From positions 1,730 through 65,729 of the forward strand of contig CAZOCL010000002.1 in assembly GCA_964578245.1 (NCBI GenBank): a stretch of DNA of 64,000 nucleotides, read 5' to 3'. This DNA is from an uncultured Klebsiella sp. GTDB taxonomy: Bacteria; Verrucomicrobiota; Verrucomicrobiia; Limisphaerales; SXTU01. The translations under genes were made by a program, and so were the position numbers. The notes under the pieces are model-generated. The model had not been told where the DNA came from. It did no database searches and saw only the letters and a list, made by a program, of their open reading frames with translations. Positions 44,007 through 61,641 of the stretch are shown piece by piece; the stretch's first letter is position 1, and every line of letters begins with the position of its first letter.

Positions 44007-45080
44007 ATGCCGTTGCCGTTTTTCAGCAGCTTCGAAAAGAAGCGGGACCAGGTAATGGTCATCGACCTGGGAGCCAAGGTCACGAAAGCGGTCCATATTT
44101 CCCGCAAGTCCAACGGCTTCACCCTGAACAATTTCGCGCTGGTGGACGCACCGGTGTATGACAAGGGCTTGAACGTCGTGCCGATGGCCAACCACCTCCG
44201 CGCGGTGGCCCAGGTGCTGAATGCACGGCTCAAACCCGTCAGCCTGGCCGTGGGCGTGGAAAGCTCCCTGCTGCGCCATGCGGACATGCCCCTGGTCACG
44301 GCGCATGACATGCGGCAGATGCTCAAATTCAGCAGCAAGAACTACTTGCAGCAGGATCTCTCGGACTGTGTCTTCGACGTGCATATCCTGCCTCCGAAGG
44401 TGGACTCCGCGCCCAAGGGTGCCGACGCGCCCAAGGCCGCCACACCGAAGACTCGAGTGCTGGTCGGCGCGGCCAAGAAGCAGGTGGTGGAGGACCTCAA
44501 GGAAGCCGCCGAGCAGGCAGGCTTGCAGGCGGATCAGATCATCCCGAGCTTCATCGGCCCGGCCAATGCGTTTGAGCAGGCGCAGCCGGATGCGTTCGGG
44601 AAGGAAGTGGTCGCCCTGGTGGACGTGGGCTACAAGAACACGACCATCTGCATCCTTTATAATGGCGAGCTGACCTTGAGCCGCGTGGTGGCCTTTGGCT
44701 CTGGCAAGCTCACGCAGGGCATTTCCGAGGCGCTGGGCATGAGCATGGACGAGGCGGAGGGCGCGAAACTGACCATGCCGCCTGAGGTGGAGTCCGTGGC
44801 GCAGTCGCTGCTCTCCCCCCTGGGCCGGGAACTGCGGGCCTCGATCGATTTCCACGACCACCAGCGGGACCGCGCCGTGAGCCAGGTGTTTTTCTCTGGC
44901 GGGGCCTCGCGGAGCGCACAGATCGTGCAGGCGCTCCAGGTGGAACTGATGGTGCCGTGCCAGACTTGGAACCCGACCAGCTTCATGACGTTGAACCTGC
45001 CGCCGCAACTGCTGGGCGAGATCGAATCCATCGCGCCGCAGTTGACCGTGGCCGTGGGCGCGGCAATGGCCGCCTTTTAG
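44007..45080 (+). CDS. pilM: Type IV pilus assembly ATPase-fold protein PilM
   Basis: ATG at 44007. It has an actin-like fold pattern (VIDLGAKVTK...VDVGYKNTTI...FSGGASR) and is followed by pilN/O/Q-like genes. Confidence 0.8.
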   Translation: MPLPFFSSFEKKRDQVMVIDLGAKVTKAVHISRKSNGFTLNNFALVDAPVYDKGLNVVPMANHLRAVAQVLNARLKPVSLAVGVESSLLRHADMPLVTAHDMRQMLKFSSKNYLQQDLSDCVFDVHILPPKVDSAPKGADAPKAATPKTRVLVGAAKKQVVEDLKEAAEQAGLQADQIIPSFIGPANAFEQAQPDAFGKEVVALVDVGYKNTTICILYNGELTLSRVVAFGSGKLTQGISEALGMSMDEAEGAKLTMPPEVESVAQSLLSPLGRELRASIDFHDHQRDRAVSQVFFSGGASRSAQIVQALQVELMVPCQTWNPTSFMTLNLPPQLLGEIESIAPQLTVAVGAAMAAF

Positions 45081-45086
45081 ACTGAC

Positions 45087-45755
45087 ATGCCGATTCGCAT
45101 CAATCTGCTGTCCGAAGAGCAATACATGGCCGAGGTGCGCCGACGCGATCCGGTCAAGCGGGCGGCGTATCTGGGCGGTTTGCTGGTGGTATTGTCCCTC
45201 TGCTGGTGGGGCTGGCTGCTGTTTGCCAAGAGCGTGGCGAGCCATTCACTGGAAGGTCAGAACTCCGCGTTTACCAAGCTCGAGAAGGGGGCGAAGGAGG
45301 TGGCCGACCACCAGAAACGCACGGCGGAGATCGAGCGGAACATTCACGGGCTGCACCGCATGGTCACCAACCGGGTGCTCTGGTCAGCCTGCCTCAACGC
45401 GTTGCAGGAGAGCACGCAGGAGTCCATCCAGGCCACGCGTATCCGGGTGGAGCAGAGCTACAAGGTGGAGCCGGCCGTGGTGTCACGCGAGCGCGGCAAG
45501 AGCAAGGCCGCCAGTTCCACGGAGACCATCGTGGTCACCATCACCGGGCGGGATTATGGCCGCCAGGAGGACCAGAACTACATCAAGTTCAAGGAAAAGC
45601 TCGAGGCGCATCCGTGGTTCAAGCAGCACCTGGCCAAGGACAGCCCGATCACCTTCAAGGGTTTCTCCAATCCCACGGCGGACAAGGATGATCCCACGCG
45701 CAGCTATGTGACTTTCACCATGCAGTGCGCGTTCACCGAACAATTCCGGAACTGA
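45087..45755 (+). CDS. pilN: PilN-like pilus assembly protein
   Basis: MPIRINLLSEE N-terminal INLL motif, a single transmembrane segment, and a coiled coil. Confidence 0.7.
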   Translation: MPIRINLLSEEQYMAEVRRRDPVKRAAYLGGLLVVLSLCWWGWLLFAKSVASHSLEGQNSAFTKLEKGAKEVADHQKRTAEIERNIHGLHRMVTNRVLWSACLNALQESTQESIQATRIRVEQSYKVEPAVVSRERGKSKAASSTETIVVTITGRDYGRQEDQNYIKFKEKLEAHPWFKQHLAKDSPITFKGFSNPTADKDDPTRSYVTFTMQCAFTEQFRN

Positions 45756-45756
45756 A

Positions 45757-46368
45757 ATGATCAGCGAGATCAAACAGCTTTCGAACGAGAAGAAACAGCA
45801 CCTGTTTGCGGTGGTGATGGGGACGCTGATGGTGCTGGCGCTGGTGTATTTCTTTGTCATCAGCTCGGCCAAGGCCAGCCTGGCGAAGATCCACACGGAC
45901 ATCACTGAGGCGGAAAAGAAATACTCCGAGGCGTCCAAGCTCGTCCGCAGTTCCGAGGCGGAGGACGAAAAGCTGACCCGGCGCGAGGAGCAGCTTGCCG
46001 CCATCGAGTCGGGCATGGTCACGGGTGACCCCAACCTCTGGATCCGGCTCACGTTCGACAAATTCCGTGCGCAGGCACCCTACAAGGTGGAGATCCCGAA
46101 CTTCCCGACGCCCGCCATTGGGGACATGGCGATGATCCCCGATTTCCCTTACAAAGCGGCGACTTACCGGGTCGCGGGCTCGGCGTATTACCATGACCTC
46201 GGCAAGTTTCTCTCCGAGTTCGAGAACTTCTTCCCCTACATCCGGGTGCTCAATCTGGACCTGTCTCCGGAGGACGCCGCCACCAGTGTCGCCTCGGGAG
46301 ATGATCGGGAGAAGCTGACTTTCTCCTTTGAAATTGTCGTGCTGGTCAAACCGCCCAAAAAGAACTGA
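45757..46368 (+). CDS. pilO: PilO-like pilus assembly protein
   Basis: Single N-terminal transmembrane segment, a coiled coil and a C-terminal ferredoxin-like region. The call also rests on its position between pilN and pilQ. Confidence 0.6.
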   Translation: MISEIKQLSNEKKQHLFAVVMGTLMVLALVYFFVISSAKASLAKIHTDITEAEKKYSEASKLVRSSEAEDEKLTRREEQLAAIESGMVTGDPNLWIRLTFDKFRAQAPYKVEIPNFPTPAIGDMAMIPDFPYKAATYRVAGSAYYHDLGKFLSEFENFFPYIRVLNLDLSPEDAATSVASGDDREKLTFSFEIVVLVKPPKKN

Positions 46369-46371
46369 CCG

Positions 46372-47046
46372 ATGAAGCCCGCCCTGCAACGACTCCGCAC
46401 ACGCGCCACCTGGCTGGCGCTGGCGGCCGCGTTGTGCCTGGCCTCGCTGGGCGCGGCACCGGCAGACGAGAAGAAAGACAAAGCCCCGGAGAAGAAGGCC
46501 GTTGATCCGAAAAAAGATCCCAAAGCGGCCGCGAAGGAAGCGGCCCCCGCGGTCACCAACACGCCGCCGATTCTGATTTCGTTCCCGAAGTCGGTGTTCA
46601 ATACCGCGCTGGAGGCGGGCAAGGATCCGTTCTTCCCGAACAGCAAACGGCGCTTCCCGAAGGCCGTGGTCGAGCCGGTCAAACCGCCGCCCGTGCCCGT
46701 GCCGACCAATCCGACCGTCGTGGTAACGGTGGGCACTACCAATGCTACGCCGCCCATCGCTACCACCAACACAAACACTCTGCCCGTGATCCCGCCGCCC
46801 ACCCTGATCGGCAGCGCCAATCTCCGGCTGCTCGGCATCGTGGGCAGCAAGCTCCGCCCGCGCGCGTCCATTCACACCGGCGTGAAGAGCTATGACTTCC
46901 TGAAAGGCGAGGAGATGCTCATCCGCCTGCCCAATGACAAGGTGCTGAAGGTGCGCTGCGTGGACATCAAGGACCGCTCTGCCACCTTTCAGGCCGAAGG
47001 TGAACCTGACATCAAAGAAATCTTTTTACGTGAGGGAGCCTTCTGA
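46372..47046 (+). CDS. PilP-like secreted protein (Pro/Thr-rich linker)
   Basis: Signal peptide and a C-terminal beta domain (LRLLGIVGS...ASIHTGVKSYDFLKGEEM...). It sits just before the secretin gene. Confidence 0.5.
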   Translation: MKPALQRLRTRATWLALAAALCLASLGAAPADEKKDKAPEKKAVDPKKDPKAAAKEAAPAVTNTPPILISFPKSVFNTALEAGKDPFFPNSKRRFPKAVVEPVKPPPVPVPTNPTVVVTVGTTNATPPIATTNTNTLPVIPPPTLIGSANLRLLGIVGSKLRPRASIHTGVKSYDFLKGEEMLIRLPNDKVLKVRCVDIKDRSATFQAEGEPDIKEIFLREGAF

Positions 47047-47082
47047 GACCGCTCGGCGGCGCGAGCCGCCGGCCAACCGACC

Positions 47083-48792
47083 ATGCGCATGAAAACGACG
47101 TCTGTCCTCCTGCTGGTAGCGGGACTCCTGCTGCCCGCCGCCCTGCTCGTGGCGCAAGCCCCGCCGCCCGCCCAGCCGGCCCCGGCCAATCCGCGCCCGG
47201 TGCAGCCGGTCCCCAGCCCGGAGAGCAAGGCCAAGGCCGCCGCGGACGCGAAAGAAGCCGTCAAGGCGGCCTTCGAGAACGAGGTCATTCTTGAACTCAA
47301 GTATGACGACATGGACTTGGTGGATCTGATCAAGAGCCTGGCCTTGCAGGCGGAAATCAACGTCTTGTTCGATCCCAAGCTGACTCAGGTCACCCGCGCT
47401 CCGGACGGCACGCCGCTGCCTTCGCCGAAAGTTCCCGCGTTCCGCATGACGAATGTCACCGCCCGGCAGGCACTGGAAGCCATCCTGGCCAACAACAACC
47501 TGCTGATGGCTCATGATCCCAAGACCAACACCTACCGCGTGAGCCCCAAGGGCGCTGCAGTGGAGGAGCCGCTCATCACCAAGATCATCGAGCTGAGATA
47601 CACCAGCCCGACCAACCTCGCCACCGTGCTGGCTCCCGGCACCGGGGTGCTCTCGTCCCGCTCCAAGGTGATCCCCGATCCCCGCACACAGCGCATGATC
47701 ATCTCCGCCACCGAGCGCGAGTGGGACTTCTTGAACGAAGTGCTCGAGAAGCTCGACACGCCGACGATGCAGGTGCTCATCGAAGCGCGCATTTTGGAAA
47801 CCTCCCGCAACCCCCAGACCCTCCGCGGCGTGGACTGGAGCGGCACCCTGCAGAACCAGCAGATCGGCTTCGGCAACGGCAACATCTCCGGCTCTGTGGG
47901 CAACGTCCGGCCCGGCGCGACCACCACGACCACGACCACCCTCCCGGGCGGACGCGTCATCACAAGTCAAAGCACTGCCCCGTCCAGCACCACGGAGACG
48001 CTTACCACGACCGTCGGCGGACTGGTGCCGGGCTTCAACATCAACACGCGGGACGGCATGAACCCGGCCGTTGGCTTCCTCAATGCCGACGGCCTCCGCG
48101 CCACGCTCTCCTTCCTGAACACGGACACCGAGACCGAGGTCATCTCCACGCCGCGCTCGGTGATGATGGACGGCCAGACTGCGCGCCTCGCTGTCACGCG
48201 CGCCTTCCCGATCTTCCAGGTCACGCCTGGTTCGGCCAACACGCCGGCTGCCGCGAGCGTCACCTACACGAACCTCGGCACCATTCTCGAGGTCAGCCCG
48301 CGCATCGCCGCCAACAGCAACATCGCGCTCAAGGTCATTCCCGAGGTGTCGAACATCGACTCGAAAGACCGCCAGACCATCAACGGCCAGGTCAACGAGG
48401 CGAACGTCTATGCCATCCGCCGGATTGAGACACAGGTGATGATCCCCAGCGGCCACACGCTGGTCATGGGCGGCCTGATCACGGACAACATCAACAAGGG
48501 CTATACGAAGGTGCCGTTCCTCGGCGATCTGCCAGGCATCGGCTGGGGCTTCCGCAAGGAGTCCAAAATCCGCACCAAGGCCAACCTCCTGATCTTCGTC
48601 ACGCCCACGATCATCGAGAGCAATCATTTCCAGACGCCCAGCACTGATTTCCTGCAAGGCAAGTCGAACCCGACGGCCACGGACTTCCTCCTGCAGCGCG
48701 CCCCGGTGATGCAGGATAAACCCGATTCCTTTTTGGACTCAGGCAAGCCGATACTGCCAGGGTCAAAACCGGTGAATCCGGAAAAATTCTGA
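47083..48792 (+). CDS. pilQ: Secretin (PilQ/GspD family)
   Basis: IIELRYTSPTNLATVL N-domain, QVLIEARILE, and the C-terminal VPFLGDLPGIGWGFR...ANLLIFVTPTII secretin signature. Confidence 0.88.
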   Translation: MRMKTTSVLLLVAGLLLPAALLVAQAPPPAQPAPANPRPVQPVPSPESKAKAAADAKEAVKAAFENEVILELKYDDMDLVDLIKSLALQAEINVLFDPKLTQVTRAPDGTPLPSPKVPAFRMTNVTARQALEAILANNNLLMAHDPKTNTYRVSPKGAAVEEPLITKIIELRYTSPTNLATVLAPGTGVLSSRSKVIPDPRTQRMIISATEREWDFLNEVLEKLDTPTMQVLIEARILETSRNPQTLRGVDWSGTLQNQQIGFGNGNISGSVGNVRPGATTTTTTTLPGGRVITSQSTAPSSTTETLTTTVGGLVPGFNINTRDGMNPAVGFLNADGLRATLSFLNTDTETEVISTPRSVMMDGQTARLAVTRAFPIFQVTPGSANTPAAASVTYTNLGTILEVSPRIAANSNIALKVIPEVSNIDSKDRQTINGQVNEANVYAIRRIETQVMIPSGHTLVMGGLITDNINKGYTKVPFLGDLPGIGWGFRKESKIRTKANLLIFVTPTIIESNHFQTPSTDFLQGKSNPTATDFLLQRAPVMQDKPDSFLDSGKPILPGSKPVNPEKF

Positions 48793-48814
48793 GCAGTCGC
48801 GAATTTCTAGTTCC

Positions 48815-51800
48815 ATGAGTGCCATCCGCACAGCAGGTGAGACGCCCGGCGCAAGCCGGGTGACGCGCTGGGCCATCGCGCTCCTGCTGGGCGCGCTGGC
48901 GCACACGGCCGCCTTGGCGCAGACCACGGTCACGACGCTCAGCGGCGGGCCAAGCTCCACGCGGCCGGGCTTTGCCGGTTCTGATGACGGGGATCTGACG
49001 TCCGTGGCCCAGTTCAATCTGCCGGGTGGCGTGGTGTTCGAACCCTCGGGCAGCATCCTCTGGCTGGCGGATACCGGTAACAACACGATCCGTCGGCTGG
49101 ATCTCACCGCCGGGACCGCGTCCACCCTCAGCACGAATTCCGTGGGTGGCATCCTCCTCTTCAACGCGCCGGTGGACGTGGCGGTGGACGGCAACACGAA
49201 CCTTTACATCCTGACGCGGGACGATGGCCGCATCCATCAACTCGACCTGCGTAACATTGCTTTCGGGGCCACCGTGACGCCGATCACTCCCGCCGGCACC
49301 TTCACCGCGCCCAACGCGCTGGCGTTCGATGGCGTCGGCAACCTGTATGTCGTCGAGGAGGCCGGCGCGCTGCGGCGGGTGGCACTTTCCAATTTCACGG
49401 TCAGCGCCAGCCTCTTGCCCGTCGGCAGCTTCGTCACGCCGCGGGGCGTGGAGGTGCTCGACAGTGGCAAGATCGCCGTGAGCGATGCCAGCCGGCACAC
49501 CATCCACCTGGTGGATCCGAACACGCTCACCGTCACTTTCCTGGCCGGCGGCACGAACACTCCCGGCACGGCCCTGGGCACCGGCGCAGCCGCCCGCTTC
49601 AATTCGCCGCATCATCTGGCGAAGGCCGGAAACAACACGCTCGTGGTGGCGGACCGGGGCAACCATCAGGTGCGTTTGGTGGACACCACGGGTGCCACGA
49701 GCGTGCTTTACGGCGTGCTGTCCAATTTCTGGGTGAACTTCCCTGATCCCTCCATCTACCCGGGCTGGGCGGATGGCTCGGCGCAGTTCGCGGAATCCCG
49801 CCTGCCGACCGGTGTGGTGGTGGATGGCAGCGGCACCACCTACGTGACCGAGCAGTATTATCACCTCATCCGCAAGGTGACCGGTTCCGGGCTGACCGGC
49901 CCCACCGGCGTGGGCAGCGGCTCGGGCGGCTCCAGTGCGTTGAACCCGCCTTCGCTGGCCTTCACCCCGAACTCCGGTTATTTCCCGCTGGGCACCACGG
50001 TCACGGTGACCAGTTCCAGCACGAACGTGTTCTACACGGCGGATGGCACCGAGCCGACCACCAACAGCACGCGGGTCATCATCACCGGCGGCACCGGCAC
50101 CATCTTGTGGCAGAATTCCACCAACGACCTCACCGGCCTGCGCGTGGCGGCGTTTGCGACCAGCGGCACGAACAGTGCGAGCACGAACATCACTGGCATC
50201 GCGTCCACCGCCACGACCCTGGGCGTGCCCGCTGGCCTGAACACCAACCTGTTCGCGGGCGTGGGGGCGCGCATCGTGGTGCCGCTCGTGCTGAACCTCC
50301 GCACCAACGATTCGCTGCGCACGCTCCAGTTCCGGGTCGAAGTCACCCCTAACGGCGCGGCCCCGATGATCGGAGCGACGTTCGGTGCGCAGGCCATCGG
50401 CACGAATGATTTCATCACGGTCACCACTGGGGGCGCGGCCAGCTTCAGTTCGCTGGCCTATACCCTGGGCACCACGCGCGGGCTGGTAGTTTCCTTCCTG
50501 GGCACCAACGCAAACTTGCTGGTGAACCGCTTCGCGGTCGCTGCATTGCTTACGGTGCCCATTCCCGCCGGTGCCGCGCAGGGCAGCACCTACAACATCG
50601 ACATCCTCCAGCCCTCCGGCACGGTCGATGGCCAGCAGAATGTGGTCGCCATCGCGCCCGCCGGCACCCGGGTCATCACCGTCACGAACCTGGCTTACCG
50701 CGTCGGCGACACCTCGCCGGGTGGCTGGTATAACGCGGGCGACTTCGGCAACGGCAATCTCGACAACGCGGACGTCAACAACGCCTTCAACGCCGCCGCC
50801 GGCATCCGCCTGCCGTTCGCGTTCAGTGATGCGTTCGACGCGATGGACGCCTTCCCGGAGGACACTGCTGGCACGGTGGGCGGCGACGGCCAGATCCGGT
50901 TCCTGGACTGGCAGATCATCCTCCTGCGCGCGCTGCGCCTGAACACCAACCCGGCGATCGGCGTGAGCACCACGAACTGGTCGCGCATGTGGTCCGGCGG
51001 TGTGCGGGTGACCACGGTGACCAATCTCCTTTCCCCGGCTGGCCGGCGTCCCACTGCCCTCCCGCCGCCGGGCGATGTCTGGAACCGGCAGGCCGCCATC
51101 GGGGCCGTGCCACTGGAGAATATCCCGCCCGGAACGACCGTGAACGTGCCGGTCTTTGCGCGGGTGGCTCCCGGTGCAGCCATCTCCGGCCTCCAGTTTC
51201 GCGCGCTGGTGAACCCGTCGGAGGGGGCGCCCGCACTCGCCCAGCCACCACAGTTCATCGCGTTCAGCCTGCCGTTCCAGCCCGCCTTCCTCTCGGGCCA
51301 GACCAACGCCATCGCCGCCGCGTGGAATGTCGGCCAGCTTGCCTTGCCGGCACTGAGCAGCAACCTGCTCGGCTTCGTGCGCTTCACGGTCCCAGTCGCC
51401 GCTCCAGCAGGTTCGAGTTACGCGGTAAGTTTTGCGAACGCGGACGGCTCGCCGGACTTCTTCACCCAATACAGCTTCGAGACGCGCGGGGCGTCGGTGT
51501 GGGTGTCACGGTCTGCGCCGGGGCCGCTCTCCATCATTTCGGATGAGTGGAAGATCGCCTTCTTCGGAAGCGCGACGAATCCCGACGCCGCCGATCTGGC
51601 CGACCCCGACGGCGACGGAGTGCCGAACGCGCTGGAATACCTCGCGGGCACCGATCCGACCAGCGCCACCTCCCGCGTGCAGCTCGCCCCGGGCGGCTTC
51701 CGCAATGGCGGCAGTGATCTGGCGCTCCAGCTTCTGAGCGCCCCAGGCAAACTCTACGTGCTGGAAAGCGCGACCACTCTTGGGAATCCCGTCTGGTCGC

Positions 51801-51898: not shown

Positions 51899-51911
51899 AA
51901 TTGCGAATTGC

Positions 51912-54900
51912 ATGAGAACTGCTCCTGCCCATCGCGCCATGACTTTTGCACGCCGGTTCCGTCCCGCCCTCGCGGCCCTCGTCGCGGGCTGGGCGGTCGT
52001 CGCGGGCGCACAGTCGGTGGACGTCGTCATCACGAACGGGCTGGTGGAGCCGCACAGCCTGACCGTGGACCCGGCGGGGACGCTGTATATCACCGACCAG
52101 GGTGGAATTTCCTTTTTCGGCCAGCCGTCGGCCAACCGCATCCTCAAGTTCATCCCCACCACTTCCACGTTCACGGTGCTGGCAGGTGACCGGGACGGGA
52201 GCAACGGCACGAACGACAATCCCACCGCCAACGCCGGCTTCAACGCGCGCTTTTACAACCCGGCGGGCATCGTCACTGCCCGCGGGGGGCTGGTGGTGGC
52301 CGATTCCGCGAACCACACCATCCGCTACGTTGGCTTCGACGGCGTAGTCTCGAACATCGCCGGTGCGCCGACGATTGCGGGGCTGGCGGATGCCACTGGC
52401 GGGGCCGCTCGCTTCAACACTCCGATTGGCCTGGCCGTGGATGCCGGCGGCAACATCTACGTCGCCGATTCGAAGAACAATGTCATCCGGAAGATCGACC
52501 CGGCCAACGCCGTCACCACCTACGCGGTCGGCTTCAACCAGCCCAATGGCGTCACCGTGGGTGACAACGGCGATCTCTGGGTAGCGGACACGCTCAATCA
52601 CCAGATCAAGTCCGTTGCCACCGGCGGTGCCGTCACCGTGCGTGCGGGCACCGGCATCGCGGGCAGTGCGGACACTTTCCCCATTGCCGCCTCGGCGCAG
52701 CTCTCCTTCCCGCGCGGCGTGGTGTGGATGGGGGCGGCGGGACTGCTCATCACCGATTCCGGCAACCACACCGTCCGCCGACTCTACACGAACACCTCGG
52801 TCAGCACCTACACGATTGAAACCTCGGCCGGTGCGGCCGGGCAGGCCGGCTTCGTGAATGGCGGGACGAATGTGGCGCGCTTGAATTCCCCCGTCGGCCT
52901 CGTGGCGGATGTATTGAACGGCGCGTTTCTGGTGGCTGACCAGGGGAACAAGGCCATCCGCCGGATCCAGCAGACCGCCGCCCAGCCGCCCATCGGCAAC
53001 CCCACCATCGGCATCGTCGAGTTGAAGACCGATCCCACCACCGGGCAGACCGGCACCGTGCTCACGAGCATCACCTCGTCCGTCTTTAACAACGACGTGG
53101 TCATCGCCATCCTCGCCGATGCGGGGGTGAACACCTATTTCAACTACGGCGTCACGCCGACGAACGCCTTCGTGGACACCATTGCTCCGCCCGGCCCCGG
53201 CACCGGCAGCGCGCCCGCCTACGCGAACGGGGCCGCCTCGCTGCCCTCCACGATCATCAACCCGGTGCTGCCTGACCTGACCATCAAGGCGCAAAGCTCC
53301 CAGAATGGCCGCATCGCCAGCGGCGTGGTCAGCGCCCGCTTCCAGTTCCAGACCGCCAACCCGACCGTCGTCGGCAACAACGCCGCCTCGTTCCTGGTCA
53401 ACAATATCAGCAGTGGCGCACAGATGTATTACACCGTTGACGGCACGGAGCCCACCAACGGCGCGCCGAGCCTGGGCCCGATCACCTCCGGCACGACGCT
53501 GTCCTTCAATCTCAACAACAGCAACCTGGTGTTTCAGATCAAGGCGTTCAAGGCCAACTACGCGGCCAGCACGACCATCTCGAATGTCTTTTCGCCTTCG
53601 AACTTTGTCGCCAACCGGATCTCCTTTGGTTTTGACGGCGGCGAGGCCTCGAGCGGCTTCATCGCGGCGGCCGGCCAGACCTTTTACGCCCCGGTCACGC
53701 TGGGCCTGCTGGCCGCCCAGCAGATGAACTCGCTTCAGTTCTCCATCTCCGCCACCAACGGCACCGGCCCGTCGCTGGCCGCCGGGGGCATCGGCTTCGC
53801 GTCGCGCCTGTTGAAGCCTGACCCCAATAATCCGGGCGTTTACCTCATCATCCCGCCGCAGTTCTTCACCGGCTTCACCACCAACATCGTCGGCACGACG
53901 ACGAACATCGTCCAGAACTTCACGAACATGGTCACCACGAACAGCGTGTTGAACCTGCTCTCCGTGGGCTGGATCGAGCGCGAGGGCGCAACGAATCTTT
54001 ACGACACGACCGCGCAGGACCTGCTGAAGTTCTCCTCCGCACATGACACGCTCTTCGACGGGGGCAACGGCAAGGTGGTGGTCGGTGCATTTGCGGTGAA
54101 GGTGCCGACCACGGCCACCAACGGGCACACTTACACGATCCAGATCCGCCGGCCTTCCGGCACGGTGGACGGCATCAACCAGGACGTTTTCATCGACGCG
54201 CCCACCAATGGCAGTCTCACCGCCCCCAGCCCGATCAACGCCATCCGGACGCTCACCGTCGGCTCACCCGTCTATCTCGTCGGCGACGCCGTGCCCTTCC
54301 GCTGGTTCAACGCGGGTGACTTTGGCGACACCAACCTGCTGGCGAACGACATTGCCCAGATTTTCCAGGCGGCGGTCTATGGTGTCAACAGCCCGGCGGG
54401 CGGCAGTGACTTCGAGGATGCGATGGATTCCTGCTGCGGCTCCATCATTCCGGCCGGTGGTGGTCTCTTCCTGCAAGGGCCGAACGTGGGCGGTTCGCTC
54501 GCTTCCGGTGATGATACGGTCATCAATACCATCGGCTTCGGGGACGGCACGCTGGATGTGGCGGACATCTTCGTGACTTTCCGCCGCTCGCTGGATGCTT
54601 CGCTCACCAATTTCTTCCGGTTCCGTTCGAACGGCTTCCATTACGCCTTCGCAGGATCAAATTCGTTCCGCGGGGTTTCTGGCCAGTCGCTGACGTCAGG
54701 GGGCAAGACCGGGTCACGCGGCGGTCCGGTGGCACAGTCCCTCCTCACGCCGGGTGATGTGCCCTCCGTCACCTTCAGTGCCGGGGAGAGCATCGGTGGA
54801 GCCGGTCAGACGCTGAACATCCCCATTTCGGCGACCATTTCCGGCTCCTTGCCGCTGCGCGTGCTCATGCTGAATCTCAGCGTGGTTCCGCTGGAAGGTT

Positions 54901-55571
54901 CCCCGGCGATCACCACCCCGGTGCAATTCCTGCCCAGCGGCCTGCTGGGTTCGCCCGGGCTGACACAGTCGCGCGGCGCGGGCAATTACTCGGCGGCCTG
55001 GCTCAACAATACCATTGGCGGCCTGAGCGGTGATGCGACGGTGGGCACGCTGGTCATGACGCTGCCCGCGGGAGCCGGCCCGAACGCCGCGTATGCCGTG
55101 CGGTTCGACCATGCCTCCGCCTCCCCGACGGGCCTCGGCACGGTGCCTGCCCGCCGCGAGGCCGGGCTCATCACGACGCGGGTTCGCAGCACGTCTTCAT
55201 GGGGAGACGCCATTCCGGATGCGTGGCGCTTGAAGCACTTTGGCGCGTTGAACAATCTGCTGTCCGCCGCGGATGCGGATGCGGATGGCGATGGCATTCC
55301 GAACTGGGCGGAATTCCGCGCCGGCACGGACCCGAATGACGCCTCCTCCGGGCTGCAGCTCCGCACCCCTGGCCTGCTGAGCAGTGGTCCGCGCTTGCGC
55401 TGGCCCACGACATCGGGGAAGAGCTACGTGCTGGAGGTCTCCGGCTCCATCGCCGGCACCAACTGGACCGCGATCGCCACCAATGTGCCTGGCACCGGCC
55501 GGGACATCGAGTTCCAGACGCCACCGCCCGCCGGGCCGCAATTCTATCGCGTGCGTTTGGTGGAGCCCTGA
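51912..55571 (+). CDS. Giant secreted NHL-repeat protein, paralogous architecture
   Basis: It has NHL blades (FNTPIGLAVDAGGNIYVADSKNNVIRKID and others). Also YYTVDGTEPT, GDFGDTNLLANDI/FGDGTLDVADIF, DADGDGIPNWAEF, and the ending PQFYRVRLVEP. Confidence 0.8.
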   Translation: MRTAPAHRAMTFARRFRPALAALVAGWAVVAGAQSVDVVITNGLVEPHSLTVDPAGTLYITDQGGISFFGQPSANRILKFIPTTSTFTVLAGDRDGSNGTNDNPTANAGFNARFYNPAGIVTARGGLVVADSANHTIRYVGFDGVVSNIAGAPTIAGLADATGGAARFNTPIGLAVDAGGNIYVADSKNNVIRKIDPANAVTTYAVGFNQPNGVTVGDNGDLWVADTLNHQIKSVATGGAVTVRAGTGIAGSADTFPIAASAQLSFPRGVVWMGAAGLLITDSGNHTVRRLYTNTSVSTYTIETSAGAAGQAGFVNGGTNVARLNSPVGLVADVLNGAFLVADQGNKAIRRIQQTAAQPPIGNPTIGIVELKTDPTTGQTGTVLTSITSSVFNNDVVIAILADAGVNTYFNYGVTPTNAFVDTIAPPGPGTGSAPAYANGAASLPSTIINPVLPDLTIKAQSSQNGRIASGVVSARFQFQTANPTVVGNNAASFLVNNISSGAQMYYTVDGTEPTNGAPSLGPITSGTTLSFNLNNSNLVFQIKAFKANYAASTTISNVFSPSNFVANRISFGFDGGEASSGFIAAAGQTFYAPVTLGLLAAQQMNSLQFSISATNGTGPSLAAGGIGFASRLLKPDPNNPGVYLIIPPQFFTGFTTNIVGTTTNIVQNFTNMVTTNSVLNLLSVGWIEREGATNLYDTTAQDLLKFSSAHDTLFDGGNGKVVVGAFAVKVPTTATNGHTYTIQIRRPSGTVDGINQDVFIDAPTNGSLTAPSPINAIRTLTVGSPVYLVGDAVPFRWFNAGDFGDTNLLANDIAQIFQAAVYGVNSPAGGSDFEDAMDSCCGSIIPAGGGLFLQGPNVGGSLASGDDTVINTIGFGDGTLDVADIFVTFRRSLDASLTNFFRFRSNGFHYAFAGSNSFRGVSGQSLTSGGKTGSRGGPVAQSLLTPGDVPSVTFSAGESIGGAGQTLNIPISATISGSLPLRVLMLNLSVVPLEGSPAITTPVQFLPSGLLGSPGLTQSRGAGNYSAAWLNNTIGGLSGDATVGTLVMTLPAGAGPNAAYAVRFDHASASPTGLGTVPARREAGLITTRVRSTSSWGDAIPDAWRLKHFGALNNLLSAADADADGDGIPNWAEFRAGTDPNDASSGLQLRTPGLLSSGPRLRWPTTSGKSYVLEVSGSIAGTNWTAIATNVPGTGRDIEFQTPPPAGPQFYRVRLVEP

Positions 55572-55636
55572 AGCTGCCGAAGCGCAGCGGCGAGTGGCCC
55601 GGCCAGGCTTGAACTTTGTTTGACGCAGCCCGAAAC

Positions 55637-58150
55637 ATGAAGCGCCGCTTACGTTTCCTGCCGGTTGTGATGGGTCTGTGGCTGGCCGTCTCCCTCGCGG
55701 CCTTCGCCCAGTCCTCCATCACGAATTTCGCCGGTGCCGCCGGCAATTCTGGCAGCGCGGATGGTTCGGCCACGACCGCGCGCTTCACCTCGCCGGCCGC
55801 CGTGGCGGTGGATGGCTCGGGCAACGTGTATGTCGTCGAGAGTGTCAACAACACCCTGCGCCTCATCACCCCGCTGGGAGATGTGAGCACCTTGGCTGGC
55901 ACGGCGGGCGTCTCCGGCAGCACGGACAGCACGAACAGCGCGGCCAGCTTTAAGACACCCAGTGGCGTGGCGGTGGACAGCGCGGGGAACATCTACATCG
56001 CCGACTACGGCAATCACACCATCCGCATGGTCACTTCCGCCGGGGTGGTGACCACCCTGGCCGGTCTCGCCGGTTCCGCTGGCAGTGCGGACGGCACAGG
56101 GGCAAGCGCCCGGTTCAGCAACCCGGCGGGCGTGGCGGTGGATTCCTCCGGCAATGTGTATGTCGCCGATACCGCCAACAGCACAATCCGCAAGATTACT
56201 TCGGGCGGCGTCGTGACCACGCTGGCGGGCACGGCGGGGAGCTTCGGCTCAACGGATGGCACCGGCGCGGCGGCCCGGTTCTTCCTGCCTTTCGGCGTGG
56301 CGGTGGATTCCGGAGGCACGGTATACGTGGCGGACACCTACAACCAGACGATCCGCGTGGTGACCGCCGGGGGCGTGGTGACGACCCTCGCCGGCATGAA
56401 AGGCTCGCCCGGCAGCGCGGACGGCGCGGGGACGGCGGCGCAATTCCGCTCGCCGCGCAGCGTGGCGGTGGATGCGACGGGCAGCCTCTACGTGGCCGAC
56501 TATGACAATGACGTGATCCGCAAGCTCAGTTCCGGCGGTGTGGTGACCACCCTCGCCGGCATGGCGGGCAGCAAAGGCAGCACGGACGCGGATGGGACCA
56601 GCGCGCGGTTTCGCGGACCCTCCGGCATCGCGGTGGACATCGCGGGCAACATCTACATCGCCGACAGTGGGAACCACACCATCCGCCGCGGCCTCAAGCC
56701 TTCCGCGCCCGCCATCAGCACGCAGCCCGTCAGCCAGACCATCGTCACCAACGGCAACGTCTCCTTTGTGGTCAGCGCCACGGGGGGCGGGACGCTCTAT
56801 TATCAGTGGCGCAAAGACGGCACGAACCTGAACGGCCAGGTCAATGCCACGCTGACGCTCTTCAACGCCCAGATCAGCCAGGCCGGGGCCTACTCCGTTG
56901 TCGTCTCGAACACCACCGCCAGCATCGTCAGCCAGGCCGCGCAACTGGCCTTCTACACGAACTACACCAATACCGTCCTGGGCGGCGTGGTGGTGGACGC
57001 GCTGACCGGCAATCCCAGCCCGAATGTGGTGGTCACCATCGCGGGCACGAATGTCACCTCCGGCGTGAACGGCAGTTTTCATTTCAATGCCGTGCCGGCC
57101 TTGCCAGTGACCCTCCTGGCCACGCTCTCGGGCTACGCGCCCTTCTCGGACACGCTCAATCTGCAGGTGGGCATCAGCAACCACTATGAGTTTGCCATCT
57201 CGCCGCAGCTCACGGACCCCAACAGCTTCCGGCTGGTGCTCAACTGGGGGGCGCTGCCAACGGATCTGGACTCGCACCTCACCACCCCGCTGATCGGCGG
57301 GCAGAACTACCACGTTTTCTATGCGAGCCGCGGCAGCGTGCAGGGGCCGCCGTTTGCGAACCTTGATGTGGACGACGTCACGAGCTACGGCCCGGAAACG
57401 ATCACCATCACGAATTTCTCGCCGGGCACCTACACCTACTACATCCACCAGTATAGCAGCAGCGGCTCGTTGCCCACCTCGGGCGCCATCGCACGCATCT
57501 ACACCTCCGCCGGCCTGTTCACCACGCTGCCGGTGCCCACCACCGGCTCGGGCATCTACTGGTATGTCTGCCAGATTGACGGGCAGACGAAGGCGGTGAA
57601 CGTGCTGAACTACATTTCCAATTCGCCGCCGGCCACGCCCAGCGGTCCCGCCCGCATCAGCACGCAGCCGCTCAGCGTGACCGCCACCGCCGGGGGCAGC
57701 GCCAGCTTCGCGGTCATCGCCACCGGGGCCGGCCCGGTCGCGTTCCAGTGGCGGCGGGACGGCACGAACATCACGGATGCAACCAACTCTTCCCTGTCGC
57801 TGCCCTTCGTTTCCCGTGCGAGCGCCGGGGTGCTCTCCGTGCTGGTCACCAACGCCACTGGTGGCGAGATCAGCGCCAACGCCCTCCTCCGCGTGCTGGG
57901 CCCGACGCGGTTTGACCCGCTGGAGCCGCAGCCCGGCGGCGCGGCGCGGCTCCGCTTTGCCGATCTCGGCGGCTTCCCATTGACCACGCAGAATTTCGCG
58001 GGCTTCCAGGTGCAGGTGAACACCAATCTCGCCACCACCAACTGGGTGTCGCTCACCAATGCCTTCCAGGTCATCAACGGCAAGATCGAAGTGGACGATC
58101 CCGGCGCGCTCCAGCAGCCGCGCCGCTTCTACCGCGTGATTGAACGATAA
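55637..58150 (+). CDS. Secreted NHL-repeat protein with Ig-like domains
   Basis: ATG at 55637 (MKRRLRFLPVVMGLWLAV). It has at least seven tandem NHL blades (FxxPxGVAVDxxGNxYVAD) and two Ig-like modules (YYQWRKDGTNL, FQWRRDGTNI). It ends RRFYRVIER. Confidence 0.8.
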   Translation: MKRRLRFLPVVMGLWLAVSLAAFAQSSITNFAGAAGNSGSADGSATTARFTSPAAVAVDGSGNVYVVESVNNTLRLITPLGDVSTLAGTAGVSGSTDSTNSAASFKTPSGVAVDSAGNIYIADYGNHTIRMVTSAGVVTTLAGLAGSAGSADGTGASARFSNPAGVAVDSSGNVYVADTANSTIRKITSGGVVTTLAGTAGSFGSTDGTGAAARFFLPFGVAVDSGGTVYVADTYNQTIRVVTAGGVVTTLAGMKGSPGSADGAGTAAQFRSPRSVAVDATGSLYVADYDNDVIRKLSSGGVVTTLAGMAGSKGSTDADGTSARFRGPSGIAVDIAGNIYIADSGNHTIRRGLKPSAPAISTQPVSQTIVTNGNVSFVVSATGGGTLYYQWRKDGTNLNGQVNATLTLFNAQISQAGAYSVVVSNTTASIVSQAAQLAFYTNYTNTVLGGVVVDALTGNPSPNVVVTIAGTNVTSGVNGSFHFNAVPALPVTLLATLSGYAPFSDTLNLQVGISNHYEFAISPQLTDPNSFRLVLNWGALPTDLDSHLTTPLIGGQNYHVFYASRGSVQGPPFANLDVDDVTSYGPETITITNFSPGTYTYYIHQYSSSGSLPTSGAIARIYTSAGLFTTLPVPTTGSGIYWYVCQIDGQTKAVNVLNYISNSPPATPSGPARISTQPLSVTATAGGSASFAVIATGAGPVAFQWRRDGTNITDATNSSLSLPFVSRASAGVLSVLVTNATGGEISANALLRVLGPTRFDPLEPQPGGAARLRFADLGGFPLTTQNFAGFQVQVNTNLATTNWVSLTNAFQVINGKIEVDDPGALQQPRRFYRVIER

Positions 58151-58327
58151 GGAACCCTGCCGGAGTTCCCGCTCCGGCGACGTTTCTGGTTTTGACGGAC
58201 CTCTTCTGCGCCGCTCTGCCTTTCTCCGCAGGCTTCTGTCGGCAACCCGTTCACTAGGGCCGTTCAACCCCTGCCATCTACCTGCTTGAGGCTGGCAGTG
58301 GGCGTGCTGACTGTGACGTGTCAGAGC

Positions 58328-58840
58328 ATGCACCTGCGTCCCGCCATTCCGTCCGCCGCCACCAACGGTGCCCGCGCGTTCAGCCTGATCGAAGCCATGG
58401 TCTCGGCCTGTGTCGTGGGCGTGCTCTTCACCTCCCTCTACGCAGGCATCACCGCCGGCTTCGGGGCGCTCAACTCCGCCCGGGAGAACCTGCGGGCCAC
58501 GCAGGTGATGATCGACAAGATGGAGACGCTCCGGCTCTACAGCTGGACCCAGCTCTCCACCTTTGGCTCCTCCACTTCCTACATTCCCACGACCTTTGTT
58601 GAGTCTTTCTATCCCACCTCGACCAACTACAGCGTGAGCACCGTCACCACCACGAATGCCACCGGCAGCGGGTTTGTTTATTACGGATCTGTGGCGGTCG
58701 CCAGCGCGGGCTTCAGCCAGAACTACTCGAACAGCATGAAGCTGGTGACCATCACGCTGCGCTGGACCAACGGCGTGCCCCGCTCGCAAAGCATGTCCAC
58801 CTACGTCGGCCAGTATGGAATTCAAAACTACATCTACTAG
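58328..58840 (+). CDS. Prepilin-type minor pseudopilin
   Basis: ATG at 58328. ARAFSLIEAMVSACVVGVLF is a prepilin N-terminal cleavage/methylation helix. Confidence 0.7.
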   Translation: MHLRPAIPSAATNGARAFSLIEAMVSACVVGVLFTSLYAGITAGFGALNSARENLRATQVMIDKMETLRLYSWTQLSTFGSSTSYIPTTFVESFYPTSTNYSVSTVTTTNATGSGFVYYGSVAVASAGFSQNYSNSMKLVTITLRWTNGVPRSQSMSTYVGQYGIQNYIY

Positions 58841-59363
58841 GCGCCGGCAGCTCGCCATGACGCTCGTCGAGGTGATGATTGCCACGGGCATCGGGACCAT
58901 GATCCTGGCCGCCGCCGGCTCGCTGATGGTTTACAACGTCCGCAGCCTGGCGGCGTTGACCAATTACGCCGACCTCGACCGCTACAGCCGCACGGCGGTG
59001 GACAAGCTCTCGCAGGACATCCGGCAGTCCACGGATTTGATTTCCTTCTCCACGACGGAACTTGAGTTCAACTCCTCGCGCGGCCGGAGCAACATCACCT
59101 ACACTTACTATCCGGACAGCCGGACCCTCGTGCGGCGGCAGGGTTCCAATCGCGAAACCCTGCTGAAGGAATGCGACTCGCTCGTTTTCACGGTTTACGG
59201 CCGGAACAACGTCTCCAACACCTGGGACCAGTTCGTCGTGACGACCGCTTCCGGGGCCAAGCTGATCAAGCTCAACTGGACCTGCTCCCGCACCATCCTC
59301 GGCCAGGCGGTCAACACGGAAAGCGTGCAGACGGCCAAGATTGTCATGCGGAAACAAGACTGA
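58815..59363 (+). CDS. Prepilin-type minor pseudopilin
   Basis: RRRQLAMTLVEVMIATGIGTMILAAAG N-terminal helix. It overlaps the upstream gene by 26 nt. Confidence 0.65.
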   Translation: MEFKTTSTRRRQLAMTLVEVMIATGIGTMILAAAGSLMVYNVRSLAALTNYADLDRYSRTAVDKLSQDIRQSTDLISFSTTELEFNSSRGRSNITYTYYPDSRTLVRRQGSNRETLLKECDSLVFTVYGRNNVSNTWDQFVVTTASGAKLIKLNWTCSRTILGQAVNTESVQTAKIVMRKQD

Positions 59364-59370
59364 CTGGCCT

Positions 59371-60921
59371 ATGAAACTCCTCCTCCGTCCCGCCCGTCCC
59401 GCTGGCAGCGTGCTCGTGGTCACGCTGGTGATCGCCATGATCATCGGCATCACGCTCGCCGCCTTCATGGACCTCAGCAGCGCCGCCCATCGCTCAGTGA
59501 TCCGCTCCGGCGTATGGAACGCCTGCATTCCGGTCGCCGAGGCTGGCGTGGAAGAGGCGCTCACGCACGTTTACCTGAACAGCACCAACCTCGCGGCTCA
59601 AGGCTGGAGCATGAGTTCCTCGGGCCTGACCATGAGCAACGGCGTCGCCCTCACCGGCACGGTTTACTACAAGTCCCGCAGCCTCAACGGTGGCAACTAC
59701 ATTGCTGCCATCCAGGGTGGGACCACCCCCACCATCACCGTGCAAGGCAACCTGCCCAAACCGCTTTCGACCACGGAAATGATCTCCCGCACCGTGCAGT
59801 TGAAGACGGTCGGCGGTGCGCTCTTTGCCCGCGGCATGGTGGCTCGAGGCACCATCAACTGGAATGGCAGCATTCTCTCCGACAGCTTCGACTCGCAAGA
59901 TCCTCGCTTCAGCAATGGCGGCCGTTACGACCCGGCGCTGCGCAACGACAACGGCTCCATCGGGTCGGTCGAAGGCAGCATTGATGTCGGGGCCAACGGC
60001 ATCATCTACGGCACCGCCGGCACCGGCCCCACCGGCCTCATCACCACCGGTTCGCACGGCGCGGTGGGGGACGCGGCCTTCGTCTCCGGAGGGGGCACGG
60101 GCATCCAGGCCGGGCATTCTCAAAACGACCTCAATGTATCCTTTCCCGATGCTACGGTTCCCTTCACGACGGGCTACAGCATTCCGGGAGGCGGTTACGT
60201 CACGAACTACACGACGGTTACCAGCGGTGCCAGCGTCACCTCCCTGATCTATCCTTCCCCCGCGCCAAGCCAGGTCACCACCAATTCGGTGACCAGCACG
60301 GCCTATCCCTCTGGCACGCCCTACTCCGTGACCACCAACGTCCTGGCCACACGGCGTGGCCGGACGACCACGTTTTCCACCAACTACACCTTCACCCAGT
60401 TCAGCTATTCCACCAACCTGGTGACGACGAACACCACCGTCACTTATTACGACCACATCCTCGACACGGGTGACTACTTTTTGAGCGGCATCAACAACGA
60501 GAATGTCCTCGTCCGCGGTAACGCCCGCCTCTATGTGCAGGGCAGTGTTTCCGAGTCGGGCGGCGCGGCCATCAGTGTGGCCAGTTCGGGCACGCTCCAG
60601 ATGTGGGTGTCCGGCAGCATCAGCCTGTCGGGCCGGGCCGCGGTCAACAACACGGGCGACGCGCTGCGCATGTCGGTCTATGGCCTGCCTACTTGCACCA
60701 GCGCGACCTTCAGCGGCAACGCTGAGTTCACCGGCACCCTTTACGCCCCGTCGGCCACCATGACCTACAATGGCGGCGGCTCGGATACGGCAGACTTCAT
60801 GGGCGGGGCAATCGTCGGCTCGGCGCAATTGAACGGTCACTTTTCCTTTCACTATGACGAGAACCTCGGCCGCAATGGTCCCAGCAGTTCCTTCGTGATC
60901 GATTCCTGGGTGGAACTTTGA
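59371..60921 (+). CDS. Large PilX/GspK-like minor pilin with a beta-helix-like C-terminal domain
   Basis: ATG at 59371. GSVLVVTLVIAMIIGITLAAF N-terminal helix, and Gly/Ser/Thr-rich repeats (GNARLYVQGSVS..., GNAEFTGTLYAPSATMTYNGG). Confidence 0.65.
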   Translation: MKLLLRPARPAGSVLVVTLVIAMIIGITLAAFMDLSSAAHRSVIRSGVWNACIPVAEAGVEEALTHVYLNSTNLAAQGWSMSSSGLTMSNGVALTGTVYYKSRSLNGGNYIAAIQGGTTPTITVQGNLPKPLSTTEMISRTVQLKTVGGALFARGMVARGTINWNGSILSDSFDSQDPRFSNGGRYDPALRNDNGSIGSVEGSIDVGANGIIYGTAGTGPTGLITTGSHGAVGDAAFVSGGGTGIQAGHSQNDLNVSFPDATVPFTTGYSIPGGGYVTNYTTVTSGASVTSLIYPSPAPSQVTTNSVTSTAYPSGTPYSVTTNVLATRRGRTTTFSTNYTFTQFSYSTNLVTTNTTVTYYDHILDTGDYFLSGINNENVLVRGNARLYVQGSVSESGGAAISVASSGTLQMWVSGSISLSGRAAVNNTGDALRMSVYGLPTCTSATFSGNAEFTGTLYAPSATMTYNGGGSDTADFMGGAIVGSAQLNGHFSFHYDENLGRNGPSSSFVIDSWVEL

Positions 60922-61284
60922 CTCAGCCGGCGGGGATGGTTCGTGGGAGGTTCGCTCGTGCCCGGGTGCCTTCGGCGGAGCCGAAATCTCAAGTTGAAGA
61001 TTTCACAGTTGAGGACCGCCGCATCCCGCTCGTCCCGTCCTTGGCTACTCGCCGGCCGCGCTCCAAACCCTGTGTGTCAGGCGAAGTTCATTTCGGGACC
61101 GCTTCGCTCCACGTATGGCTTGGGCCATCCGTCACCGTGCGCAGAGCCATAATACACCGTCGTCGGCCCTGCTGCGCGGCCCGACACTAGCTATGATTCG
61201 CATGTCGGTGCCGGTCATGGCCACCGCAATCATTCATAACCAACGCGGCGATCTTCCGCTGCATTTCACTAATCCTCGTTCCTC

Positions 61285-61641
61285 ATGAAAACCTCCCGCT
61301 CCCGCTCCGCTGGCTTCACCCTTGTCGAAATCATGATCGTCGTCGCGATCATTGGCCTCCTGGCCGCCATCGCGATTCCGAACTTCGTGAAGGCGCGCGC
61401 CACCGCCCAGAAGAACGCCTGCATCGCCAACCTCAAGCAGATTGATGGCGCAGTCCAGCAATGGGCCTTGGAAAACAAGAAGGCCGCGACGGACACCTAC
61501 GCCCTCACCGACACCACGTTTCTCGCCTACCTCAAAGGTTCACTCCTGCCCGCCTGCCCCGGCGGAGGCGCCTACAGTGCGGCCACCACCGTTTCCGGCT
61601 CGCCCACCTGCAGCCTCTCTGCAGACGGGCACACGCTCTAG
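61285..61641 (+). CDS. Major prepilin-type pseudopilin (T2SS GspG / type IV pilin-like)
   Basis: MKTSRSRSAGFTLVEIMIVVAIIGLLAAIAIPNF is a canonical G|FTLVE processing site and methylation motif. Confidence 0.85.
   Translation: MKTSRSRSAGFTLVEIMIVVAIIGLLAAIAIPNFVKARATAQKNACIANLKQIDGAVQQWALENKKAATDTYALTDTTFLAYLKGSLLPACPGGGAYSAATTVSGSPTCSLSADGHTL

Follow-up and report, generated by a model that had tools for sequence, protein, structure and literature searches.

A type IVa-like pilMNOPQ operon of Limisphaerales that continues into genes for large NHL-propeller proteins with a predicted cohesin-fold region

Introduction

The way in which the machines of type II secretion and of type IV pili pick out their substrates has been an open question for a long time. 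In type IVa pili, the pilMNOPQ genes usually lie apart from pilB, pilC, pilD, and the pilin genes. Here we describe a pilMNOPQ-type operon that runs on into genes for very large secreted proteins, within a cluster of 12 plus-strand genes (pilM-N-O-(P)-Q, NHL1, NHL2, NHL3, mp1-mp2-mp3, and a short pilin gene) at positions 44007 to 61641 of a 64,000-nucleotide stretch of DNA, referred to below as the window. The window corresponds to C2:1730-65729 of a metagenome-assembled genome (7.7 Mb in 943 contigs, 86% complete; the contig itself measures 75 kb) from an uncultured soil or freshwater bacterium of the Limisphaerales, phylum Verrucomicrobiota. Verrucomicrobiota have many secretins and huge surface proteomes, and we know of no described logic by which these proteins are exported.

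Secreted proteins tied to such machines are known from several systems. The PilY1/PilC proteins (Pseudomonas and Myxococcus PilY1) are large Sec-exported beta-propeller tip adhesins that work with minor pilins, and SslE/YghJ of Escherichia coli (with gspC-M beta) and PulA of Klebsiella are very large dedicated exoproteins encoded with their secretin machines. TcpF of the toxin-coregulated pilus from Vibrio cholerae and CofJ of the CFA/III pilus of enterotoxigenic E. coli are encoded in type IVb pilus operons, are secreted by the pilus, and bind the tip minor pilin (PMC10120004, PMC9565799, PMC6048534). The Amuc_1098-1102 pilus-like cluster of Akkermansia muciniphila contains a secretin and the non-pilin surface proteins Amuc_1099 and Amuc_1100 (PMC4960237), and non-cellulosomal cohesin/dockerin adhesins are found, for example, in the partners of anaerobic methanotrophic archaea (ANME) consortia (PMC10553843). 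Our literature search returned work on Akkermansia PilQ, TcpF/CofJ, and non-cellulosomal cohesins, and no description of an operon joining pilQ to NHL/cohesin genes or of the C-terminal module (CTD) discussed below.

The locus has the gene order of the type IVa operon of Pseudomonas aeruginosa, Myxococcus xanthus, and Thermus thermophilus, with pilM, genes for two bitopic proteins, a gene at the PilP position, and the secretin gene. It differs in continuing into two or three genes of 840 to 1220 codons for secreted proteins with a propeller and predicted cohesin folds, in its short secretin (569 aa), which scores under the NCBIfam PilQ cut-off, and in a "PilP" without detectable homology. The best precedent for private cargo is TcpF/CofJ, as Sec-exported proteins encoded in a pilus operon. 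Those proteins are small and soluble, belong to type IVb machines, and have no sequence relation to the present ones, which measure 840 to 1220 aa, are modular, paralogous, and secretin-adjacent in a IVa-like setting, and carry a CTD common to dozens of other proteins. Unlike in PilY1, the propeller here sits at the N terminus and belongs to the NHL type; the genes come after pilQ instead of lying in a minor-pilin operon, and a Pfam scan gave no PilY1 family match. The SslE and PulA clusters include GspC/L/M/E/F and have lipoprotein substrates, whereas this locus has PilM/N/O and no ATPase. The Akkermansia cluster resembles it in phylum and in joining a secretin with non-pilin surface proteins, and the non-cellulosomal adhesins resemble it in combining cohesin folds with a double calcium-loop segment in surface proteins, although here the modules lie within one chain. 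As far as sequence comparison reaches, the added genes have functional precedents in TcpF/CofJ, PilY1, and SslE/PulA and no homology to them. Our best reading is that a type IVa-pilus-like machine has its pilMNOPQ half encoded at this locus, in an operon extended by genes for dedicated partner proteins.

Results

Conservation of the pilQ-NHL gene order

The gene order was followed in a close set of 17 loci found with the secretin (49 to 98% identity) and in a wider sample of 301 genomes of the class. In all 17 close loci, pilM-N-O-P-Q is followed directly downstream by orthologues of NHL1 and NHL2, counting one locus with a single hybrid NHL gene (L028) and one whose sequence ends inside NHL1, so that NHL1 alone is visible (L020). 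In the wider sample, the C-terminal half of NHL1 (the C-half), taken in full, is matched only within the same order, and 13 of the 14 more distant same-order genomes having the NHL1/2 type carry it on the pilQ contig, on the same strand and directly downstream. Matches covering the cohesin/dockerin-like part of the C-half lie no more than about 8 kb from a pilQ orthologue, the sole exception being the fourteenth genome (G249, locus L062), in which the locus is rearranged and lacks pilP and pilQ. Within the source genome, the C-half is found in NHL1 and NHL2 only. The linkage persists down to about 37% PilQ identity and 35 to 52% NHL1 identity, and NHL1 orthologues stand directly after pilQ in 31 loci. 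NHL1 identity in close relatives (66 to 86%) is on par with that of PilN, PilO, and PilP. The first-pass annotation had argued from tight packing on one strand that the NHL proteins are not bystanders, and the retention of the pilQ-NHL1-NHL2 order in the close loci and the distant genomes bears this out.

The intergenic distances, from pilM to the short pilin, are 6, 1, 3, 36, 22, 13, 65, 177, -26, 7, and 363 nt; pilQ and NHL1 are thus separated by 22 nt, NHL1 and NHL2 by 13, NHL2 and NHL3 by 65, NHL3 and mp1 by 177, and mp3 and the pilin gene by 363. A scan for consensus terminators and promoters returned 13 sites, which is no more than the 15 expected, and none at the gene junctions. The gaps of 13 to 65 nt and the absence of a terminator suggest that the NHL proteins are produced together with the secretin. 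Every gene of the first-pass annotation was recovered at its position, and the gaps it listed were exact. Both short junctions (48793-48814 before NHL1 and 51899-51911 before NHL2) contain GCGAATT 5 to 11 nt before the ATG, either by chance or as a possible common signal for translation initiation. The cluster is bordered on both sides by opposite-strand genes that have nothing to do with pili; those upstream encode an MFS transporter and an oxidoreductase, and the one downstream encodes a receiver protein.

The third position after pilQ is variable. Among relatives, NHL3 occurs in L014, L017, L022, and L024 only, while in L051, L059, L032, and L033 the slot is taken by a protein with an RCC1 propeller, an Ig domain, and a CTD, which is the sole gene left after pilQ in two genomes. 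The latter four loci come from genomes with the same genus code; their PilQ genes belong to different branches of the PilQ tree, and their cargo is either the NHL1+NHL2 pair, a single NHL hybrid gene, or the RCC1-propeller protein only. This suggests that the whole cluster or its downstream slot has been replaced or transferred in that genus. Two irregular loci were also seen: in L062:1-4800 (G249), pilM, a pilN fragment, and pilO run straight into the NHL1 C-half, and L025:2947-4632 has an internal stop in NHL1. Both reflect either locus decay or assembly errors.

Architecture of the NHL proteins

As judged by reading the sequence, all three NHL proteins begin with a Sec signal peptide that has an AxA↓Q site (the arrow marks the cleavage position here and in Table 1). 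NHL1 and NHL2 are ancient paralogues built on one domain order (given for NHL1 in Table 1), with 28% identity over 744 columns. Residues 66 to 360 of NHL1 make up a six-bladed NHL propeller, with PDB matches to the PknD sensor domain and Pizza, and an Ig-like domain follows. An AlphaFold2 (AF2) model of whole NHL1 from 15 close orthologues was poor (pLDDT 58.5), with the propeller part alone usable, while a model of the C-half (residues 470 to 1027) from 52 NHL1 and NHL2 sequences reached a pLDDT of 83.7 and a pTM of 0.78. The C-half model begins with a beta-sandwich, continues with a segment of three helices that carries two calcium-loop-like motifs and then with another beta-sandwich, and ends in a TSP3 repeat and a small terminal sandwich.

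The top PDB matches of the modeled C-half in Foldseek are cohesins (probability 1.0, target TM scores of 0.6 to 0.73), many of them solved with dockerins, and the Pfam Cohesin domain is detected in 4 of the 52 C-halves (best E value, 6.3e-5). A cohesin fold in the NHL1/2 C-half is therefore supported by the predicted structure. The Pfam Dockerin domain matched none of the 52 C-half sequences, and the dockerin assignment of the calcium segment is a resemblance, consisting of two D-x-(N/D)-x-(D/N)-G-like loops and three helices. This dockerin-like segment is the most conserved part of NHL1 (mean identity 0.87, versus 0.68 for the propeller), and it holds most of the 17 columns that are invariant over both paralogues.

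A C-terminal module shared with proteins downstream of other secretins

All three NHL proteins end in the CTD (window positions 51700-51898, 55370-55571, and 57940-58150), a module formed by the last 55 to 70 residues with the consensus G..Y.V....NL...W....TN......F.D.........RFYRV...P. The same module occupies the extreme C terminus of at least 50 open reading frames (ORFs) in the source genome and of 25 to 91 per genome in five near-complete relatives. A subtilisin-like peptidase is among the carriers, as are ORFs of 14157, 8759, and 6225 codons (contigs C1 and C5), and an extracellular fate of CTD proteins is indicated because the module is common to the peptidase and to ORFs of up to 14157 aa. 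Two subtypes occur, one ending in ...RRFYRVIER and the other in ...FYRVxxLP. No Pfam or NCBIfam model matches the CTD, even at an E value of 10. The combination of a small C-terminal beta-sandwich with an N-terminal Sec signal is reminiscent of type IX secretion system (T9SS) cargo, and neither Por_Secre_tail nor CHU_C matched the CTD at the same threshold.

CTD genes were scanned for within 9.5 kb on each side of all 26 secretin genes in these five same-order relatives (L064-L089). A CTD gene lies downstream on the same strand of 10 of the 26 secretins (15 genes), while the three control positions (same-strand upstream, opposite-strand downstream, and opposite-strand upstream) gave one locus each. 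The secretins with downstream CTD genes include the PilQ orthologue, a GspD-like type with an N0 domain, and the Amuc_1098 type. An Amuc_1098-type secretin is followed by an orthologous CTD protein of about 530 to 700 aa on contig C99 of the source genome and in L068, L073, L077, L081, and L089 (three genomes), and a second CTD protein of about 1000 aa follows in 4 of these 6 places. The operon in the window is one case of a recurring, order-level arrangement in which a secretin gene is followed by its own CTD-tagged partners.

The five scanned genomes have 4 to 8 secretins each, which is unusually many. On C99 (L063:1-18553), an Amuc_1101-like gene, an Amuc_1100-like gene, and a gene for a 295-aa protein of unknown function are found with a gene for a 974-aa tetratricopeptide repeat (TPR) secretin (Amuc_1098_fam, 333 bits); downstream of a 5'-3' exonuclease-like ORF, the same contig encodes three CTD proteins. 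Two, of 677 and 1039 aa, have orthologues behind this secretin type in three other genomes, and the third, of 1261 aa, is a subtilisin-like peptidase.

Identity of the secretin and the pil genes

The coordinates of all 12 genes and the matches on which their names are based are given in Table 1; the pilM-N-O-(P)-Q part spans 44007-48792. The identities of PilM and the secretin are firm at the level of protein family assignment, and full-length pilM orthologues are found in those related loci whose sequence extends upstream of pilN. The names PilN and PilO are provisional, being drawn from weak family matches and position, with size and a transmembrane helix that fit. The gene at the PilP position is the least conserved of the operon (45 to 87% identity in close relatives); its product has no clear lipobox and gave no Pfam, NCBIfam, or PDB match even at an E value of 10.

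Family searches with the secretin detected no AMIN or N0 domain, and the NCBIfam scores for GspD (189 bits; cut-off, 351) and PilQ (179 bits; cut-off, 284) are both under cut-off. The GspL profile matches PilM weakly and nothing else in the cluster. Assignment to a Gsp type II system was rejected on the GspD score, the weak GspL match to PilM only, and the lack of an ATPase on the contig. Assignment to the Amuc_1098-type clusters was also rejected, as the secretin scores 74.5 bits against an Amuc_1098_fam cut-off of 750 and the genome has its own Amuc-type cluster on C99. Between its N-domain and the secretin domain, the protein carries a Thr/Ser-rich insert (window 47890-48000, GATTTTTTTLPGG...STAPSSTTETLTTT), which may be a glycosylated or flexible loop.

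Table 1. Genes of the cluster in the window, with the matches and features behind each name
Feature	Coordinates	Strand	Evidence and remarks
pilM, actin-like cytoplasmic pilus assembly protein, 357 aa	44007..45080	+	PF11104 PilM_2, 103 bits (cut-off 27), full length
pilN-like bitopic protein, 222 aa	45087..45755	+	Position; N-terminal transmembrane helix; Amuc_1101_fam PilN-like C-terminal part, weak (E 2.5e-6); kept in relatives
pilO/GspM-like bitopic protein, 203 aa	45757..46368	+	T2SS_GspM_XpsM (E 1.7e-7); T2SSM (E 0.036); 1 nt from pilN
PilP-position secreted protein, 224 aa	46372..47046	+	Position and size only; signal peptide; Pro/Thr-rich linker
pilQ-type secretin, 569 aa	47083..48792	+	Secretin, 139 bits; one Secretin_N, 46 bits; Thr-rich insert
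NHL1, 1027 aa	48815..51898	+	NHL repeats, 45 bits; signal peptide, 6-blade propeller, Ig, predicted cohesin, dockerin-like Ca segment, predicted cohesin, TSP3, CTD
NHL2, 1219 aa, paralogue of NHL1 with the same C-terminal half	51912..55571	+	NHL, 100 bits
NHL3, 837 aa (ATG 55637) or 844 aa (TTG 55616)	55616..58150	+	NHL, 142 bits; propeller, Ig, CarboxypepD_reg-like, Ig, CTD; CTD match 1.1e-16
mp1, minor pilin, 170 aa from ATG	58328..58840	+	Prepilin-like ...ARA↓FSLIEAMV; N_methyl weak (E 0.013); Ala at -1
mp2, minor pilin, 182 aa	58815..59363	+	N_methyl, 22.8 bits; 26-nt overlap with mp1
mp3, large GspK/PilX-like minor pilin, 516-526 aa, without Glu5	59341..60921	+	DUF7305, 82 bits; hydrophobic N terminus AG↓SVLVVTLV
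Short type IV pilin, 118 aa, candidate major pilin	61285..61641	+	N_methyl, 34 bits; G↓FTLVE

Pilins, ATPases, and source records

The 75-kb contig carries neither a T2SSE ATPase gene nor a platform gene, and the 17 related loci likewise show no T2SSE gene in the 10 kb around the secretin. Elsewhere in the genome there are 14 T2SSE matches and T2SSF platform genes on 7 contigs, including a pilB-pilC pair on C579, and the single Peptidase_A24 prepilin peptidase gene is on C108. PilB, PilC, and the prepilin peptidase are thus encoded on other contigs, as had been anticipated in the first-pass annotation, and their absence near the locus is ordinary for type IVa pili. That annotation had also depicted the NHL genes as bracketed by the secretin operon and pseudopilin genes, an arrangement that is not conserved. 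Genes mp1 to mp3 lie downstream in the window and in L014 only, upstream of pilM in L027 and L034, and nowhere else within 10 kb; minor pilins are thus found within 10 kb of the operon in 4 of about 49 loci, and downstream in 2 of about 49. In L027 and L034 the mp1 orthologues adjoin pilM, and L034 has mp1 to mp3 without NHL genes. Prepilin-type N termini occur on about 101 ORFs of the genome (median length, 257 aa), among which the 118-aa pilin is one of the shortest.

Relatives of the source genome are deposited under Limisphaerales, Pedosphaera, or Verrucomicrobiota. The record titles of L014, L017, L018, L021, L022, L026, and L030 name Klebsiella, Klebsiella pneumoniae, Akkermansia muciniphila, or Proteobacteria. 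On metagenome-assembled genomes that hold a Verrucomicrobiota locus, such titles look like taxonomic mislabels in the source records.

Discussion

We regard a functional coupling of the NHL proteins to the secretin machine as probable. That they serve as its cargo or as fibre-bound adhesins, and that they pass through PilQ, we infer, and we propose tentatively that NHL1 to NHL3 are dedicated, secretin-dependent surface adhesins. The proteins would be made together with the secretin and exported by Sec into the periplasm, as the signal peptide on each suggests. With type II secretion and TcpF/CofJ as models, it may be that they fold there and cross the outer membrane through the PilQ channel, and a pilus or pseudopilus with an mp1-mp3 minor-pilin tip complex could push them outward. 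They would then stay on the surface or the fibre as a calcium-dependent assembly held through the cohesin and dockerin-like modules, with the less conserved propellers as putative ligand-binding heads, while the ATPases, platform protein, and prepilin peptidase would come from other loci. This whole chain of export and display appears to us quite possible, if short of probable.

Several observations weigh against this proposal. About 16 same-order genomes have pilMNO(P)Q (38 to 50% identity) without NHL genes, and the genes that follow pilQ in them are unrelated (e.g., Nramp, an O-antigen-ligase-like protein, and an acyl ligase); the machine therefore works without the NHL proteins. Minor pilins rarely adjoin the operon. 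The dockerin-like segment may pack inside its own chain instead of bridging two proteins, a possibility raised by the high pTM of the C-half model. Most CTD genes adjoin no secretin, and 91 are present in a genome (G279) in which PilQ has no close orthologue, so the CTD is not specific to this secretin and another export route is possible.

On the question, raised by the first-pass annotation, of whether related genomes have the pil genes without the NHL genes, close relatives offer no such case, and the long-range cases are read here as the repeated loss of an accessory. In the PilQ tree, the NHL-linked state falls on both sides of the midpoint root, and at least 4 to 5 changes are needed. 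An ancestral pilQ-NHL link with several losses is the simpler history, because one and the same pair of paralogues is unlikely to have been inserted at this site several times. As other lineages lost the NHL genes and kept pilMNOPQ, the NHL proteins are considered accessories and not core parts of the machine, and a role for NHL1/2 as essential machine parts was rejected for this reason. The same losses count against a structural role, in which NHL1 and NHL2 would form a periplasmic or outer-membrane-associated ring, cap, or stabilizer of the PilQ channel. Such a role would agree with the strict adjacency to pilQ, with conservation equal to that of core components, and with the C-half as a predicted rigid multidomain body, yet the CTD is common to peptidases and giant adhesin-like ORFs and the third slot is variable, and we regard it as improbable. 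An adjacency without any functional meaning is the least credible explanation, and close to refuted: 31 species-level genomes share the synteny, across a sequence divergence of about 60%, and homologues of the C-half are found nowhere else.

Two other explanations keep a functional tie and alter the mode of export or display, and we consider both unlikely. The NHL proteins might be fibre adhesins in the manner of PilY1, unreleased and riding the pilus tip bound to an mp1-mp3 complex. They are large, Sec-exported propeller proteins; NHL3 ends shortly before mp1-mp2-mp3 in the window, where mp3 is a large GspK/PilX-like tip pilin; and the mp1 to mp3 orthologues beside pilM in L027 and L034 mark these pilins as part of this machine. 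However, the PilY1/PilC family is absent from the Pfam matches of the NHL proteins, their conserved neighbor is pilQ, with minor pilins nearby in few loci, and L034 keeps the minor pilins without the NHL genes. Alternatively, the CTD might direct a general export or anchoring route independent of this secretin, with the operon merely timing adhesin production with that of the pilus. The large number of CTD genes per genome, mostly unlinked to secretins, fits such a route, as does the abundance of the CTD in G105 and G231, which lost the NHL pair, and in G279. Set against this, no other outer-membrane translocon was identified (a SprA search was empty, and control genomes were equally silent), and the strong enrichment of CTD genes directly downstream of several secretin classes points to the secretins as a group.

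The CTD itself could be a tag by which Limisphaerales sort or retain proteins exported through secretins, although we consider this doubtful at present. If true, 25 to 91 proteins per genome, including ORFs of more than 10,000 codons, would cross the outer membrane via type IV pilus/type II secretion-like secretins, and each secretin class would keep "private" CTD partners directly downstream, a T9SS-like tag logic on a secretin machine.

In this locus, one secretin is stably paired with two paralogous modular proteins, a combination maintained across the order. With cohesin-fold and dockerin-like modules tied to a pilus operon, their assembly principle would appear in a new context. A CTD that is shared by these proteins and enriched downstream of several secretin classes offers a testable way into substrate recognition, and the pairing of pilQ with its exoproteins may reveal by what means a large class of surface proteins is exported or displayed in these bacteria.

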